From contig JANYCO010000056.1 in the NCBI GenBank assembly GCA_025360235.1, forward strand, positions 1 through 13,791: DNA of 13,791 nucleotides. The letters run 5' to 3'. The notes below the pieces were generated by a model. The model did not search any database, was not told where the DNA came from, and was given only the letters and a program-made list of their open reading frames with translations. Below, piece after piece: positions 1,941-8,436 of the stretch. Numbering within the stretch: the stretch's first letter is position 1; every line of letters starts with the position of its first letter. Both the position numbers and the translations under genes were made by a program. The stretch comes from Cytophagales bacterium. Lineage in GTDB: Bacteria; Bacteroidota; Bacteroidia; Cytophagales; Cytophagaceae.

Positions 1941-3692
1941 ATGAAAAAGACATTAATTTCTTTTCTTTCGGTTGCTTTACTTGTAAGCGCTTGTGGCCCT
2001 TCAAACGATAGCAACGTAGATCCAAATGCATTAGTAGAAGCCAAAGGTGGCAAATATTATGGCGGTACTTTCATAGTGAATGAATCCGATTATATTAAAA
2101 ACCTATTCCCTCATAATATCATAGATGCGATCTCTTACCGAGTGGCCTCTCAGATCTATGAAGGGCTTATGAAATTTGATCAAAAAGACTTAAGTCTTAA
2201 AAACGGTATTGCAGAAAGCTATACCGTGGATTCTTCGCAAACAGTGTACACCTTTAAATTAAGAAAAGGGGTTATGTTTCATGACGATGAATGCTTCTCA
2301 GGCGGCAAAGGCAGAGAAGTGACTGCAGAGGATGTAAAATATTGCTTTACGTTACTATGTACTCCTAGCGTAACCAACCAAGGGTTTAGCTGTTTGGACG
2401 GTATTGTAAAAGGAGCCAAGGAATATTATGTTGCTGCTAAGGATGGCAAAAAGCCAGGATTTGAAGTAGAAGGTATCAAGGTAATTGATGCATCAACAAT
2501 TCAATTCACGCTTACTGCTCCAAATTCTATCTTCCTTAATAACTTAGCGCGACCATTTACCTTTATCTTCCCAAAAGAAGCATATGAGAAATACGACAAA
2601 GAAATGAGGATAAAAGCAGTTGGTACTGGCCCATTCTCTATTTCTAAAGTGGAAGAAGGAAATGTTGTTGTACTTAAGAAAAACGAAAACTATTATTTGT
2701 CCGATAAAGACGGAAATAAACTTCCTTATTTGAATGGAATAAAAGTTAAATTTTTAAAAGACAAAAAATCTGAACTGTTAGAATTTAAAAACGGTCGTTT
2801 GAATATGATGTACCGTATGCCTACAGATTATATTATAGAAATAGAAGAACAAACTGCACAGAAAACAGGTGTATATGGAGAATACGAACTTCAGAGAACT
2901 CCTGAAATGGCAACGCACCTTTTATGTTTCCTGAACAATGGAAAAATGTTCAGCAACAAAAATCTAAGAAAGGCAATCTCTTATGCAATCAACAGAAAGA
3001 AAATTCTTGAAGCAGTATTGAATGGAGAAGGCTACTGGCATGCTATCTATGGCATCACTCCGGTAGATGCTTTCAAAGGATACGATGTTAAAAAAATAAA
3101 AGGATACGACCTGAACTTGGATTCAGCTAATATGTATTTGAAAAAAGCTGGGTTCAAAAAAGGAGCTGATGTTCCTAAAATCACGCTTGAATTAAACTCT
3201 GATGGTGACAGAAACATTGCAGTAGCAGAAGAAGTAAAAAAACAACTTAAAGAAAATCTTGACATTAATGTCGACATCAATGTGGTTACAACTCCGGCAT
3301 TGGCAGAGATCATGCAGAGTGGGAAAAGTGATTTCTTTCGTTTAGGTTGGTTTGCCGATTATCCAAGTCCTGAAAACTTCCTTTGGTTCTTCTACGGTAA
3401 AAATGTACCTGCTACAATGGATGAAATTTCTTATCCAAACTTTACAAGATACGTGAATCCTAAGTTTGATGAATTGTACGAAGCAGGCTTAAGAGCAAAA
3501 ACGCAGGAAGAGGCGTATGGCTATTTCTTAAAAGCAGAACAAATTGCAATGGATGATGCACCTGTTATTGCCCTTTGGTATGATGAAGGATACAGATTGC
3601 TTCAATCTACAGTAAGGGGATTGGACAACAACGCTATGCAGTTTAGGGATTTTACCGGAGTGTATTTTATACCTGGAACAAAAAAGAAATAG
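1941..3692 (+). CDS. Extracellular solute-binding protein family 5 (OppA/DppA-like) lipoprotein
   Basis: It has a lipoprotein signal peptide with the lipobox LVSAC (Cys18). The mature protein is ~565 aa and opens with GGTFIVNESDYIKNLFPH...YEGLMKFD, which is typical of cluster-C/family-5 peptide or nickel binding proteins. No cognate OppBCDF-type permease genes are nearby. Confidence 0.85.
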   Translation: MKKTLISFLSVALLVSACGPSNDSNVDPNALVEAKGGKYYGGTFIVNESDYIKNLFPHNIIDAISYRVASQIYEGLMKFDQKDLSLKNGIAESYTVDSSQTVYTFKLRKGVMFHDDECFSGGKGREVTAEDVKYCFTLLCTPSVTNQGFSCLDGIVKGAKEYYVAAKDGKKPGFEVEGIKVIDASTIQFTLTAPNSIFLNNLARPFTFIFPKEAYEKYDKEMRIKAVGTGPFSISKVEEGNVVVLKKNENYYLSDKDGNKLPYLNGIKVKFLKDKKSELLEFKNGRLNMMYRMPTDYIIEIEEQTAQKTGVYGEYELQRTPEMATHLLCFLNNGKMFSNKNLRKAISYAINRKKILEAVLNGEGYWHAIYGITPVDAFKGYDVKKIKGYDLNLDSANMYLKKAGFKKGADVPKITLELNSDGDRNIAVAEEVKKQLKENLDINVDINVVTTPALAEIMQSGKSDFFRLGWFADYPSPENFLWFFYGKNVPATMDEISYPNFTRYVNPKFDELYEAGLRAKTQEEAYGYFLKAEQIAMDDAPVIALWYDEGYRLLQSTVRGLDNNAMQFRDFTGVYFIPGTKKK

Positions 3693-3750
3693 ACCACTGA
3701 TTGAACGGATTAAGTGATTTCGCGGATTCCTTTATAAGATAAAAAAATAA

Positions 3751-3782
3751 AAAAAGAGCAACCTTTGGTTGCTCTTTTTTTA
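3751..3782. terminator. Bidirectional rho-independent terminator between convergent genes
   Basis: The stem GAGCAACC (3756-3763) pairs with GGTTGCTC (3767-3774) around a TTT loop. It is followed by T7 (3775-3781) and preceded by an A-run (3741-3755), so it reads as a terminator on both strands. Confidence 0.75.
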
Positions 3783-3813
3783 TAAAATCGGAGAAATCCC
3801 TAATTTCATTTAA

Positions 3814-4386
3814 TCAACGATAAAAGAGTTTTTTATGAATATACGCCTCAACTTGTTCTGTCACCAGATAACGAATAGATTTCCCTTCTTTTATATTGCT
3901 TCTGATATAGGTAGCAGAAATATCTAACAGAGGGGCAGGAACAAATTTTACTTTCGGATGCTCGGAAAGGTTTGTTTTTTCTGCGGCTGGTCTTGGGTAT
4001 ACATACAATTCATAATACTCAAGAATTTTATCGTAATTTTTCCATTTAATAAAAGAAGCCAGATTATCTTCACCAATGATAAGCACAAACTGATGTTGAG
4101 GATATTTTTCAGATAGATAGGTAAGCGTATCGATGGTGTAGCTTGGCTTGGACAAATGAAACTCTACATCAGTGACTTTTAATTTATAGCTGTCGTTTAC
4201 TGCTAACGAAACCATTTCATAACGGTCAAACTCATGAAGGAGGCTTGCATTTTTTTTTAAAGGATTTTGAGGAGATACTACTAACCAAACCTCTTGAAGA
4301 TCGGAGTTCTCAGCCATTGTATTGGCAATAATTAAATGACCAATATGGATAGGATTAAAAGAGCCGAAAAATAAACCAATCTTCAT
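3814..4386 (-). CDS. nadD: Nicotinate-nucleotide adenylyltransferase
   Basis: The N-terminus MKIGLFFGSFNPIHIGHL carries the (H/T)xGH nucleotidyltransferase motif, and the C-terminal ISATYIRSNI is an ISSTxxR-like motif. The ORF-track start at 4392 is a TTG, so the ATG at 4386 is taken as the true start. Confidence 0.9.
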   Translation of the reverse strand: MKIGLFFGSFNPIHIGHLIIANTMAENSDLQEVWLVVSPQNPLKKNASLLHEFDRYEMVSLAVNDSYKLKVTDVEFHLSKPSYTIDTLTYLSEKYPQHQFVLIIGEDNLASFIKWKNYDKILEYYELYVYPRPAAEKTNLSEHPKVKFVPAPLLDISATYIRSNIKEGKSIRYLVTEQVEAYIHKKLFYR

Positions 4387-4391
4387 TTTCA

Positions 4392-4450
4392 ATTTTGAGT
4401 TATGAATTTTGAGTTATGAATTAATAGTTCAACATTCATAACTCAAAATT
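4392..4450. repeat. Perfect 16-bp inverted repeat (ATTTTGAGTTATGAAT-N12-ATTCATAACTCAAAAT) plus a third direct half-site copy, placed between the SDR stop and the nadD start
   Basis: TTTTGAGTTATGAA occurs at 4393-4406 and 4407-4420. Its reverse complement occurs at 4436-4449. Confidence 0.6.
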
Positions 4451-4452
4451 AT

Positions 4453-5181
4453 TTATACGCAATATCCTCCATCTATATTCAGCACTGTGCCTGTAATATA
4501 GTTGGCTTCGTCAGAAGCAAGGAAGAAGTAGGCATTAGCAATATCTTCAGCTGTACCGATTTTTCTTGCTGGGATTTTTTCCTTGATCGACTTAATAACC
4601 ATTGCTGTATTTTTATTGATGTACTCGCTGTCTATATAGCCAGGAGCAATTGTATTTACAGTTATATTATGTTTGCTAAGTTCCAATGCCCAAAGTTTTG
4701 AAATGCCTATTACACCATTTTTTACTGCTGAATAGTTTGCCTGATTTACATCTCCGTATAAACCTAGAAGCGCCGTAGTATTAATAATTCTTCCATAATT
4801 ATTAAGAAGCATATAAGGGGAAACTGCTTTGATACAATTCATAACGCCACTAAGACTTTTGTCGATCAATTTTGACCAATCACTCTCCCCAGCATCTATA
4901 CTGGAGGCTGCATTATTGATTAGGATATCTATGCGTTGGTATTTTTCGTAAATTTCTTTTGCTCTTTTTTCTGTCTCTTCAAGATTTGTATTGTCTACTT
5001 TCTGAAAATCTACGGTGCATTTTTGAGCCTTTAGATTGGCTACTACGATTTTTCCTTTTTGTTCGTCGGTGTCCCAGAGAATAACTTTAGCGCCTGACTT
5101 ACAAAATTTATTAATGGAGGCGGTGGCTATGCTATCTGCCCCTCCACTTATAATGACAATTTTGTTTTCTGATTTTCTCAT
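4453..5181 (-). CDS. Short-chain dehydrogenase/reductase (SDR) family oxidoreductase, FabG-like
   Basis: It is ~240 aa with a glycine-rich N-terminal dinucleotide-binding segment (ISGGADSIATA), an NNAA motif, and the catalytic YSAVK (Yx3K). Its ATG overlaps the menA stop (ATGA). Confidence 0.85.
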   Translation of the reverse strand: MRKSENKIVIISGGADSIATASINKFCKSGAKVILWDTDEQKGKIVVANLKAQKCTVDFQKVDNTNLEETEKRAKEIYEKYQRIDILINNAASSIDAGESDWSKLIDKSLSGVMNCIKAVSPYMLLNNYGRIINTTALLGLYGDVNQANYSAVKNGVIGISKLWALELSKHNITVNTIAPGYIDSEYINKNTAMVIKSIKEKIPARKIGTAEDIANAYFFLASDEANYITGTVLNIDGGYCV

Positions 5182-7335: not shown

Positions 7336-7971
7336 TTAACATTTCCTTCGTATTCTTTTTCTCCCTTTGCCGTTACAATTATAACAGATAATTTTTTCCT
7401 TTAACGTTCCTTTGCATACCGTGCATTTCACTATTTTTTCTCCATTACAACGATGGCAGGTGTGAAAAGTATTTCCAAAACTATTGCTGGCCGTAGCTAC
7501 ACCACTTCCTTTACAAAGAGGACAAATTTCGACGCCTTTTCCTTTACAGTGCCTGCAAGCGATTTCAACGGTTGAATCCCCATAACAAATATCACATTCC
7601 ATATAAACATCATGATAGCCAGTCTCCTTGCAGTCTGCCTGAATAAGCGCTTCGTGTGCTTTGTGAGAAAGAGGACCTTCTTCCCCTTGCAGCATTATAT
7701 ATTTATTAAGGGCTGCACGACTCTGAGCATATTTGTTTAGATTAAGTAAAGTATAGCCATAAAAATAAGCGAGTTCATCAGGAACAGCGGTTTTAAGAGC
7801 AAAGATTTTTTTGAAAATATCGTTCGCCTCAGAAAATTTTTTCTCTTCTACTTTCTGTTTTGCCAGTTCAAGATAATGGTTAGCTAAAGTATCTTTAGGT
7901 GTTTGTCCAAAAGATAAGTTAAAGCCTGTTATAAGGAAACTGCAATAAAAGACCAGAATAAAACGCTTCAT
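7336..7971 (-). CDS. Secreted TPR-like / DnaJ-type (CxxCxGxG) zinc-finger protein
   Basis: It has the signal peptide MKRFILVFYCSFLITGFNLSFGQ and a helical TPR-like N-terminal half. The C-terminal half has six CxxCxG repeats (CRHCKGKG, CPLCKGSG, CYNCNGKG and others) like the DnaJ cysteine-rich domain. Its stop is 21 bp from the MFS start. Confidence 0.7.
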   Translation of the reverse strand: MKRFILVFYCSFLITGFNLSFGQTPKDTLANHYLELAKQKVEEKKFSEANDIFKKIFALKTAVPDELAYFYGYTLLNLNKYAQSRAALNKYIMLQGEEGPLSHKAHEALIQADCKETGYHDVYMECDICYGDSTVEIACRHCKGKGVEICPLCKGSGVATASNSFGNTFHTCHRCNGEKIVKCTVCKGTLKEKIICYNCNGKGRKRIRRKC

Positions 7972-8007: not shown

Positions 8008-8358
8008 CTATATAAGATATGTCCCTAAATCGATTATTTTACCCTCTGTAAAGCTAAAATCGCCTTCCTGTTCAGTATCAATATCATCTAACAAAGGACT
8101 TATAAAGAATTCTTTACCCTCTCTGTAAACTTTAAAATATAGATCAGGGAAAGTTTCAAAGGGAGAGTCGGCAGATTTTATTTTATCAAGGTCAAATTTA
8201 ATCATGACATTTCCTTCCTTGTCTGGTTTTGCTTCGCCAAGAAAGTCGTCTTCTATTGGATCTTTGTCGTATAGCCTTACAGAAATAGTATCTCCGGAAA
8301 GTGCAGCGCCTGTTCCTTTTTCAGTGAGTTGAATTTTAGTATGAATGAAAATGCCCAT
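8008..8358 (-). CDS. Hypothetical acidic cytoplasmic protein (116 aa)
   Basis: It is a clean ATG ORF with no signal peptide. It is rich in D/E with alternating hydrophobic residues, suggestive of a beta-sandwich fold. No family is recognised. Confidence 0.55.
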   Translation of the reverse strand: MGIFIHTKIQLTEKGTGAALSGDTISVRLYDKDPIEDDFLGEAKPDKEGNVMIKFDLDKIKSADSPFETFPDLYFKVYREGKEFFISPLLDDIDTEQEGDFSFTEGKIIDLGTYLI

Positions 8359-8393
8359 AAGTGGATTATTTTGTTTTTTTGTAAAGATAGAAT

Positions 8394-8436
8394 AAAAGGA
8401 GGAAAGAAGAAAAGGAGAAAGGGAGAAAAGAAGAAG
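8394..8436. repeat. 43-nt pure polypurine (plus strand) / polypyrimidine (minus strand) tract
   Basis: The tract AAAAGGAGGAAAGAAGAAAAGGAGAAAGGGAGAAAAGAAGAAG contains only A and G. It lies in the 109-bp gap between the rsuA-like stop and the 116-aa gene start. Confidence 0.9.

Follow-up and report, generated by a model that had tools for sequence, protein, structure and literature searches.

Inverted heptamer arrays in the SDR-nadD spacer of a Cytophagales bacterium: a probable intercistronic RNA hairpin from a repeat family present in many phyla

The stretch of DNA analysed here (contig JANYCO010000056.1 of assembly GCA_025360235.1, Cytophagales bacterium; 13,791 nt in total, hereafter the window) carries on its minus strand, in this order, genes for a major facilitator superfamily (MFS) protein, a menA-like UbiA protein, a short-chain dehydrogenase/reductase (SDR) and the nicotinate-nucleotide adenylyltransferase NadD. 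Successive junctions between these four genes measure 1 nt, a 4-nt overlap and 66 nt, and the junctions upstream of the last spacer measure 21 nt, 1 nt and a 4-nt overlap. The element studied here is the set of repeats that fills this last spacer, between the SDR stop codon (4453-4455) and the nadD ATG (4386-4384), a start codon supported by a 100% identical database protein of 190 amino acids (aa). A canonical intrinsic terminator was found only after nadD, so that the operon ends there and the organism can be said to employ ordinary terminators. The repeat element is intercistronic, lying inside the MFS-UbiA-SDR-nadD operon. Coordinates of the features are collected in Table 1.

Three copies of the 12-mer TTGAGTTATGAA, and no more, were found in the window, two of them direct (4395-4406 and 4409-4420, plus strand) and one inverted (4435-4446, minus strand), in agreement with the original prediction, which had been made from the sequence alone. 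That prediction had also described a perfect 16-bp inverted repeat and a 60-bp gap filled completely by the copies. The inverted repeat is real but 17 bp long, with AATTTTGAGTTATGAAT (4405-4421) and ATTCATAACTCAAAATT (4434-4450) as its arms and 12 nt between them, and the spacer measures 66 nt, of which the repeats occupy all but 2-5 nt at each end. The third, direct copy of the spacer repeat lies at 4391-4407. Since the 12-nt 'loop' is itself a degenerate copy of the repeat, the whole of 4391-4450 makes up a palindrome of 30+30 nt with 87% complementarity. With loops of up to 40 nt allowed, the longest perfect inverted repeat was 17 bp against a maximum of 12 bp in 60 dinucleotide-preserving shuffles of the window, and the spacer RNA folded at -22.2 kcal/mol (z = -7.5, with 0 of 200 shuffles equally stable), indicating that the inverted repeat did not arise by chance.

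The underlying repeat unit is a heptamer, TTTTGAG/TTATGAA with the consensus TKWTGAR, arranged as a forward array followed by its inverted array. This follows from the self-match of 4386-4455, which reached 0.62, 0.71 and 0.53 at lags of 7, 14 and 21 and about 0.3 at other lags, and from Tandem Repeats Finder (TRF), which reported a period of 14 with 2.3 copies at 4391-4422. Written as mRNA (minus strand), the spacer is TAA-ata-ATTTTGAG TTATGAA TGTTGAA CTATTAA TTCATAA CTCAAAA TTCATAA CTCAAAA TTGAAA-ATG, in other words a short U/G-rich TKWTGAR array and then a longer, C/A-rich array of its complements without any G, and the three 12-mers are the best-preserved portion of this heptamer pattern. 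Two identical 3' copies thus offer themselves to the 5' arm as alternative pairing partners. We compared an unconstrained fold of the window spacer with one whose tail was kept free: the proximal register gave a hairpin of -18.1 kcal/mol that leaves 18 nt free before the nadD AUG, and the distal register (-22.2 kcal/mol) turned the distal copy into an outer stem ending 3-6 nt from the AUG, the loop heptamers (4422-4433) allowing the full 60 nt to fold as a 30-bp imperfect stem. The distal copy (4387-4404) is accordingly modelled as either a single-stranded C/A-rich leader or part of the outer stem. An extra half-site had been proposed at this place; the third copy is indeed present, and it would be the leader portion of the 3' array, not an additional half-site of an operator.

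Table 1 Features of the window that bear on the SDR-nadD element and its relatives.
Feature	Position	Strand	Description
SDR	4453..5181	-	242 aa; Pfam adh_short_C2, 1.1e-49; TAA stop at 4455-4453, 2-3 nt before the first heptamer
nadD, nicotinate-nucleotide adenylyltransferase	3814..4386	-	190 aa; Pfam CTP_transf_like, 7.6e-23; named homologues
Hairpin 5' arm, AAUUUUGAGUUAUGAAU	4434..4450	-	U/G-rich, heptamers UUUUGAG and UUAUGAA; inverted repeat of 17 nt, 100% complementary; folds
Loop of the 17-bp hairpin, GUUGAACUAUUA	4422..4433	-	Degenerate heptamer pair; used in the minimum-free-energy structure
Proximal 3' arm, AUUCAUAACUCAAAAUU	4405..4421	-	C/A-rich, G-free; inverted repeat; folds
Distal copy, UCAUAACUCAAAAU plus UGAAA, up to the nadD AUG	4387..4404	-	TRF; alternative folds
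Canonical intrinsic terminator after nadD	3747..3783	-	Terminator scan; 17-pair perfect stem, T-run
Solo family array, TTCACAA CTTAAAA CGCATAA CTCATAA	9200..9227	+	C/A-rich; about 40 nt upstream of the vault-like open reading frame, on its coding strand; partial 12-mer match
Related heptamer array, (GAATTAA)4	11737..11763	+	Directly after the stop of the vault-like open reading frame; TRF period 7, 4.7 copies

Homologues of this NadD with 78-90% identity belong to uncultured Cytophagaceae-like bacteria (the cultured Emticicia and Jiulongibacter reach about 70-74%), and the gene order UbiA-SDR-nadD is conserved in relatives. The original prediction had proposed a comparison of nadD upstream regions, and this bore the element out: among eleven distinct relatives whose SDR-nadD spacers were read, six carry a heptamer-array hairpin at the window's position, with varying sequence, and four are without it. 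The six, with the identity of their NadD and their heptamers, are L147 (89%, partial; window-like), L148 (87%; TTTTAAG/TTATGAG, with (CTCATAA)n), L125 (85%; TTTTAAG/TTTTGAA), L149, which equals L150 (85%; TATTGAG), L168 (83%; TCCTGAG/TATTGAG) and L169 (80%; TTATGAG/TTATGAA/TTTTGAA). A common layout of stop codon, hairpin, 17-19 nt of G-poor, C/A-rich heptamers and ATG is shared by the window and all six orthologues, and the fold z-scores of the seven spacers range from -3.4 to -7.6 against shuffles. The distance from the main stem to the AUG is likewise 17-19 nt in 7 of 7, the window's figure being that of the proximal register. Pairing was compared arm by arm, as the MAFFT alignment of the spacers slips by whole heptamers and was therefore left unused for covariation. 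Relative to the window's arms, changes on both sides of the stem numbered 2 in L125, 1-2 in L148 and 4 in L149, and no change was one-sided. Arm lengths differ by whole heptamers among orthologues and among copies.

In the spacers without a hairpin, only remnants of the C/A-rich array are left (L126/L167 and L127/L146), the C/A-rich array is missing (L003) or the spacer is longer and unrelated (L124), and the fold z-score is about +0.6 for L126 and L003. A neighbour-joining tree of nadD shows carriers of the hairpin in all parts of the clade, with the spacers that have none at nested positions, as losses in L003, L124 and L126. Layout and pairing are kept while the heptamer sequence differs, which favours a structure-based element over a sequence-specific operator. 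As far as these spacers can tell, the hairpin at the nadD junction of the Cytophagaceae clade has kept its structure longer than its sequence, and the element has stayed in place there for a long time.

The turnover of sequence under a constant structure is the opposite of what a protein operator would lead one to expect, and it bears directly on the first function proposed for the palindrome, that of a DNA operator through which a regulator of nicotinamide adenine dinucleotide (NAD) metabolism, of the NadR, NiaR or NrtR type, controls nadD. Palindromic symmetry and a position beside nadD speak for such a site, but the orthologous spacers keep pairing and not sequence, four relatives have no hairpin, and the identical 17-mer stands beside unrelated genes in another Cytophagaceae genome and in other phyla, as described below. 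The published motifs, TGTTTA-N6-TAAACA for NadR and a 21-bp palindrome with the core GT-N7-AC for NrtR (PMC2330246), were compared with the element by eye and did not match it, and the NrtR regulon reported for Cytophaga consists of prs-nadV and nadE and does not include nadD (PMC2330246). Pfam searches of the window found no regulator gene; the junction is intra-operonic, and a sigma-70 promoter scan, whose model is not one of Bacteroidota promoters, gave no promoter-like site toward nadD in the spacer. We consider the operator highly improbable, and tuning of nadD expression at the RNA level more likely than control through an NAD-specific operator. By eye, TAATTTTG at 4451-4444 (minus strand) fits TAnnTTTG; an internal promoter at this place was not adopted because the match is not conserved in the orthologues.

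The SDR-nadD element belongs to a heptamer-array family with members in many phyla and with dispersed copies in at least one further Cytophagaceae genome. A search for other copies, which the original prediction had recommended, found only weaker arrays within the window and a wealth of them elsewhere. When 185,579 species-representative genomes were scanned for the 17-mer, at least 120 stretches matched. In the Cytophagaceae bacterium SMAG_U13839 (DATLOZ01), exact copies of the 17-mer number at least 8 and are spread over 7 separate blocks of 8 kb, where they adjoin unrelated genes, and these 56 kb contain 15 clusters of the same heptamers, all intergenic, between co-directional or convergent genes. 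Nine of the clusters are forward-then-inverted hairpins whose loops, from 6 to more than 100 nt long, are mutually unrelated, and the repeat itself is the only similarity between the window and the DATLOZ01 blocks. Outside DATLOZ01, the 17-mer lay inside the same kind of array in 46 of 113 matches, among the matches listed, and the taxa concerned included Acidobacteriota, Cyanobacteria, Bacteroidales, Thermodesulfobacteriota and other Deltaproteobacteria, Ca. Thiodiazotropha, Chloroflexia, Ignavibacteria, Leptospiraceae and Cloacimonadota. By TRF the period was 7 or 14 at the DATLOZ loci as well as in the window and its orthologues. Cultured carriers among the matches include Parabacteroides distasonis An897, Dysgonomonas gadei ATCC BAA-286, Splendidivirga corallicola BMA10 and Arcicella gelida DC2W. 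A scan of viral contigs returned 16 matches to the 17-mer, only 2 of them in array context, so that this set shows the appearance of true chance matches, and it gave no evidence for a phage vehicle. BLAST of the spacer against the PLSDB plasmids found no match, to which the low-complexity filter may have contributed.

Dispersed copies with inverted ends and variable, sometimes G+C-rich centres, in a cross-phylum distribution that suggests horizontal spread, could point to a mobile element resembling a MITE (miniature inverted-repeat transposable element). However, neither target-site duplications nor heptamer-independent conserved termini nor a conserved core were seen in the flanks and centres of 29 elements, whose loops of 0-102 nt are unrelated, and MITEs were rejected on this ground. 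Arm-length variation of the slippage type, persistence at the orthologous nadD junction and the polarity toward gene ends that solo arrays share make a mobile element a very remote explanation. A second, G+C-richer heptamer, GATACCR, also builds forward-then-inverted hairpins (L124 10874-10948, L080 7483-7549, L004 1467-1491 and 7956-7989, L006 491-523), both in the genome of an 85%-identical nadD relative and in DATLOZ01, and the copies of L124 and L080 share 80% identity over 75 nt. These genomes thus build inverted heptamer arrays as a general habit, and not from one sequence only.

The arrays are polarised with respect to gene ends. Over all loci, a forward array followed by an inverted array within 150 nt was observed 29 times and the opposite order once, the sole opposite case being the gap between two adjacent elements; 9 of the 29 pairs come from DATLOZ01 and 4 are nadD-junction orthologues, which lowers the number of independent events. 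The median distance of an array was about 6 nt to neighbouring stop codons and about 27 nt to start codons, where the starts come from a crude caller of open reading frames (ORFs) and the start-side distances are approximate, that of nadD being supported by homology. For solo arrays of at least 3 units, the nearer coding-sequence boundary lay 3' of the C/A-rich strand in 32 cases versus 12 otherwise, and these 32 boundaries comprised 16 same-strand start codons and 16 stop codons of genes on the opposite strand. In mRNA sense, U/G-rich arrays stand just 3' of stop codons and G-free, C/A-rich arrays just 5' of start codons, the C/A-rich array reaching the nadD ATG in the window and its six orthologues. 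A co-directional junction that has both types of array forms a hairpin automatically. This polarity across phyla is the most interesting and the least explained of our results.

Neutral simple-sequence DNA, in which slippage expands and contracts arrays and template switching makes quasi-palindromes, would be self-renewing and harmless and would have no role at nadD. Such a process would account for arm lengths that differ by whole heptamers between orthologues and copies, for the loss of the element in several relatives and for the similar arrays or hairpins built by GATACCR and GAATTAA heptamers; in addition, heptamers are the commonest long simple-sequence-repeat unit in prokaryotes, as Mrazek 2007 is cited in PMC4679880. 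It does not sit well with an element kept at one junction although these genomes share no more than 70-79% identity in the flanking coding DNA, with a stem-AUG distance that is constant where steps of 7 nt would be expected, or with the strict polarity toward stop and start codons (29:1 and 32:12). We regard a purely neutral origin as unlikely, though it deserves serious weight.

A further explanation takes the AU-rich stem for a transcript boundary, either a terminator without a U-tract or a site for the double-strand-specific RNase III, that separates nadD from the MFS-UbiA-SDR message. The duplex, 17 bp if perfect and 30 bp if imperfect, starts right after a stop codon, family members occur between convergent genes and abut stop codons, and a nadD mRNA that began, after cleavage or trimming, with a hairpin and some 19 nt of leader would be stabilised. 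But only 3 of the 17 pairs of the stem are G-C, and no U-tract lies 3' of it, where the sequence is UCAUAACUCAAAAUUGAAAAUG; the original prediction had noticed the missing U-tract, and the terminator scan agrees, as it did not call the SDR-nadD hairpin, whereas it called 3783-3747. The organism employs canonical terminators (3747-3783 and about 11773-11806, the latter after the 11737-11763 array), and arrays of the family enclose or precede canonical terminators (L064 3861-3975, L004, window 11737-11806), which suggests that the arrays are not terminators themselves. Some orthologue stems, at 9-11 bp, are short for RNase III. A transcript boundary at this place appears improbable to us.

Two observations concern the canonical terminators. 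The one after nadD has A-runs upstream and T-runs downstream and lies between the convergent SBP_bac_5 gene (ending at 3692, plus strand) and nadD (ending at 3814, minus strand), and probably acts as an intrinsic terminator in both directions. Elsewhere, A+T-rich heptamer arms surround a short G+C-rich inner hairpin (L064 3861-3975, L039 7502-7571, L049 114-199, L008 7415-7572), an arrangement found also in G+C-rich genomes, and the L064 element, from DATLOZ01, encloses a canonical G+C-rich terminator, so that an ordinary terminator stem appears clamped between the heptamer arms.

Taken together, we consider it probable that the 60-bp palindrome, composed of inverted heptamer arrays, provides an intercistronic RNA hairpin and an unstructured leader that set the translation of nadD or the fate of the mRNA. 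The element would then act on the transcript and not as a protein operator. Its stem would form 3-4 nt past the SDR stop, a position in which REP-type (repetitive extragenic palindromic) hairpins affect the upstream cistron and protect the 3' end. REP stems shield upstream mRNA from 3' exonucleases, as the malE-malF REP of E. coli does. Where a REP lies no more than 15 nt from a stop codon, it stalls ribosomes during termination and reduces the output of the gene before it, according to the account of Liang et al. 2015 given in PMC12306157. On the side of nadD, initiation in Bacteroidetes depends on low mRNA structure and upstream adenines, and AUG is depleted near start codons (PMC6847099). 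The tail is A-rich and G-poor, contains no AUG and has an A at -3, and for these reasons it could plausibly serve as an unstructured landing site for the Shine-Dalgarno-less Bacteroidota ribosome, bounded by the stem 17-19 nt upstream. Pairing in the proximal register would free this leader and pairing in the distal register, the more stable of the two in the fold, would bury it to within 3-6 nt of the AUG, and gain or loss of 7-nt units by slippage would reset the balance between a free and a sequestered leader. A processing site or attenuator uncoupling nadD from the upstream message, which had also been put forward originally, would fit the conserved layout and would be the most likely class of function, so that this proposal may be partly right.

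Several points weigh against this interpretation. The hairpin in vivo, an effect on SDR or nadD translation and any processing are all things that we infer, and the compensatory-looking changes of the arms can also arise by DNA template switching or gene conversion, without selection on RNA. The hairpin is dispensable, since four related spacers (L003, L124, L126/L167 and L127/L146) do without it. The constancy of the 17-19 nt tail depends on seven sequences and on the choice of the proximal register. As for dispersal in the window's own organism, the case for it comes from two weaker arrays, at 9200-9227 and at 11737-11763, together with a different genome, and in about 66 kb from the closest relatives arrays were seen at the nadD junction only, a distribution at least as easily reconciled with a locus-specific element as with a REP-like one.

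The window's 13.8 kb contain one strong array of the family, that of the SDR-nadD spacer, and these two weaker ones, which lie on either side of an 821-aa ORF (9271-11736, plus strand). This ORF matched Pfam MVP_shoulder (2.6e-26) and Vault_3 (3.7e-07) and is predicted to encode a bacterial protein resembling the major vault protein. In the divergent region between it and a 94-aa ORF (8851-9135, minus strand), about four tandem 9-mers (CGCAAAGAT, period 9) occupy 9159-9195 on the plus strand and could be binding sites for a regulator. Upstream of the MFS-UbiA-SDR-nadD genes lie a 211-aa ORF (7336-7971, minus strand), which has a weak match to a DnaJ-type CXXCXGXG zinc finger, and a 116-aa ORF (8008-8358, minus strand) without a Pfam match; both are conserved upstream of these genes in the relatives L001, L149, L167 and L169 and may belong to the same operon. 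Past the start (8358) of the 116-aa ORF and before the 94-aa ORF, a purine-rich repeat with a period of 8 or 16, AGAAGAAA, runs through about six copies at 8389-8435.

For the annotation of the locus, the result removes a tempting but wrong label, the NAD operator, from the nadD spacer. In its place stands a testable model for an essential NAD-synthesis gene at the end of an operon in a Shine-Dalgarno-less organism, namely a hairpin that abuts the stop codon and a leader that changes in 7-nt steps. Heptamers near start codons were so far a curiosity without explanation, known from Beggiatoaceae, cyanobacteria and a few Bacteroidetes. To these we add a second heptamer family of wide distribution, a strict orientation of the arrays with respect to both stop and start codons, the joining of inverted arrays into hairpins and an orthologous locus at which structure persisted through sequence turnover. 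A bolder proposal, doubtful at present, is that TKWTGAR arrays are a coherent, horizontally spread cross-phylum family that works as 'punctuation' at coding-sequence boundaries. U/G-rich arrays, with UGA in all three frames, would trail stop codons within about 6 nt, C/A-rich arrays would lead into start codons, and where both share a spacer they would pair as a hairpin, sometimes clamping a canonical terminator. If this were true, one would look for a shared reader, for example a protein with a cold-shock or S1 domain that binds single-stranded heptamers, or for a shared mechanism that generates the arrays, and the nadD junction would be one long-lived regulatory instance of the punctuation system. 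The cultured carriers could make the question experimentally approachable.

Among known systems, intrinsic terminators have in common with the element a stem-loop directly downstream of a coding sequence, but the element has neither a G+C-rich stem nor a U-tract, and canonical terminators are found at other places in the window and within or beside members of the family. NadR, NiaR and NrtR operators are likewise palindromes beside NAD genes, in contrast to which the element leaves the NadR and NrtR consensus unmatched, lacks sequence conservation, is not tied to one gene and has an intra-operonic position. The hairpin belongs to no known Rfam RNA family: with Rfam 15 the whole window gave only matches to generic eukaryotic-miRNA hairpins, at 22-31 bits against thresholds of 53-230.

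REPs and bacterial interspersed mosaic elements (BIMEs) of enterobacteria and pseudomonads are closer. They too are short dispersed extragenic palindromes, often at operon junctions and often no more than 15 nt from a stop codon, and they are a functional analogue of the element. They are, however, G+C-rich imperfect palindromes of 20-40 nt that have a linked RAYT transposase and a conserved head, GTAG or CGTC, whereas the element is A+T-rich, consists of tandem heptamers and has no GTAG or CGTC head and no known partner gene, Pfam having found no RAYT gene in the window. It is palindromic and extragenic, and the high copy number that also characterises REPs was seen in another genome, DATLOZ01. 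The earlier suggestion of a small REP-like element can be kept in the sense of a dispersed family of heptamer-array hairpins; the long life of the element at the nadD junction and the absence of the defining G+C-rich stem and head set it apart from true REPs.

The element extends a known class of intergenic heptamer repeats, to which the TAACTGA repeats and the cyanobacterial short tandemly repeated repetitive (STRR) sequences belong. STRR1-3 are CCCCAGT, TTGGTCA and CAACAGT, which differ from the TKWTGAR units. TAACTGA heptamers form direct repeats that precede start codons by a few nt in Beggiatoaceae, Cyanobacteria and five Bacteroidetes, one of which is Flexibacter litoralis of the Cytophagales (MacGregor 2015, PMC4679880); relatives differ in them by 7-nt indels, a translational role has been proposed, and the survey counted 169 direct sets and a single indirect set, with no predicted structure (PMC4679880). 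Our arrays resemble them in being tandem 7-nt units in intergenic DNA, placed in the forward direction within a few nt upstream of starts that have no Shine-Dalgarno sites, in containing stop codons in forward reading, in changing by 7-nt steps and in a scattered distribution that includes Cytophagales. The nadD-proximal arrays even read TAACTCA/AAATTCA in mRNA sense, one base away, and L148 carries (TAACTCA)3. They are unlike them in their heptamer set (TKWTGAR, complement YTCAWMA), in the pairing of the nadD array with an upstream inverted array into a stable hairpin, and in a second rule, by which the U/G-rich strand comes directly after stop codons. In Nostoc, (TTCAAAA)3 lies upstream of recF and about twenty other genes (bioRxiv 10.1101/2022.06.06.494920). 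The (TTCAAAA)3/(TTTTGAA)3 repeats near starts in Nostoc PCC 7120 use a unit of our family, TTCAAAA/TTTTGAA, which we found in the nadD spacer of L125 and in L117 from Nostoc. Like the STRR and Nostoc repeats in general, the arrays are dispersed intergenic tandem heptamers for which a translational or post-transcriptional role has been proposed and not proven; unlike the Nostoc cases, which are direct arrays, they form inverted pairs and occur in a Cytophagaceae host. A literature search for the heptamer strings returned nothing beyond the TAACTGA (PMC4679880) and Nostoc (bioRxiv 10.1101/2022.06.06.494920) reports, and in comparison with these the inverted pairing, the rule that arrays follow stop codons and the heptamer set itself appear to be new.

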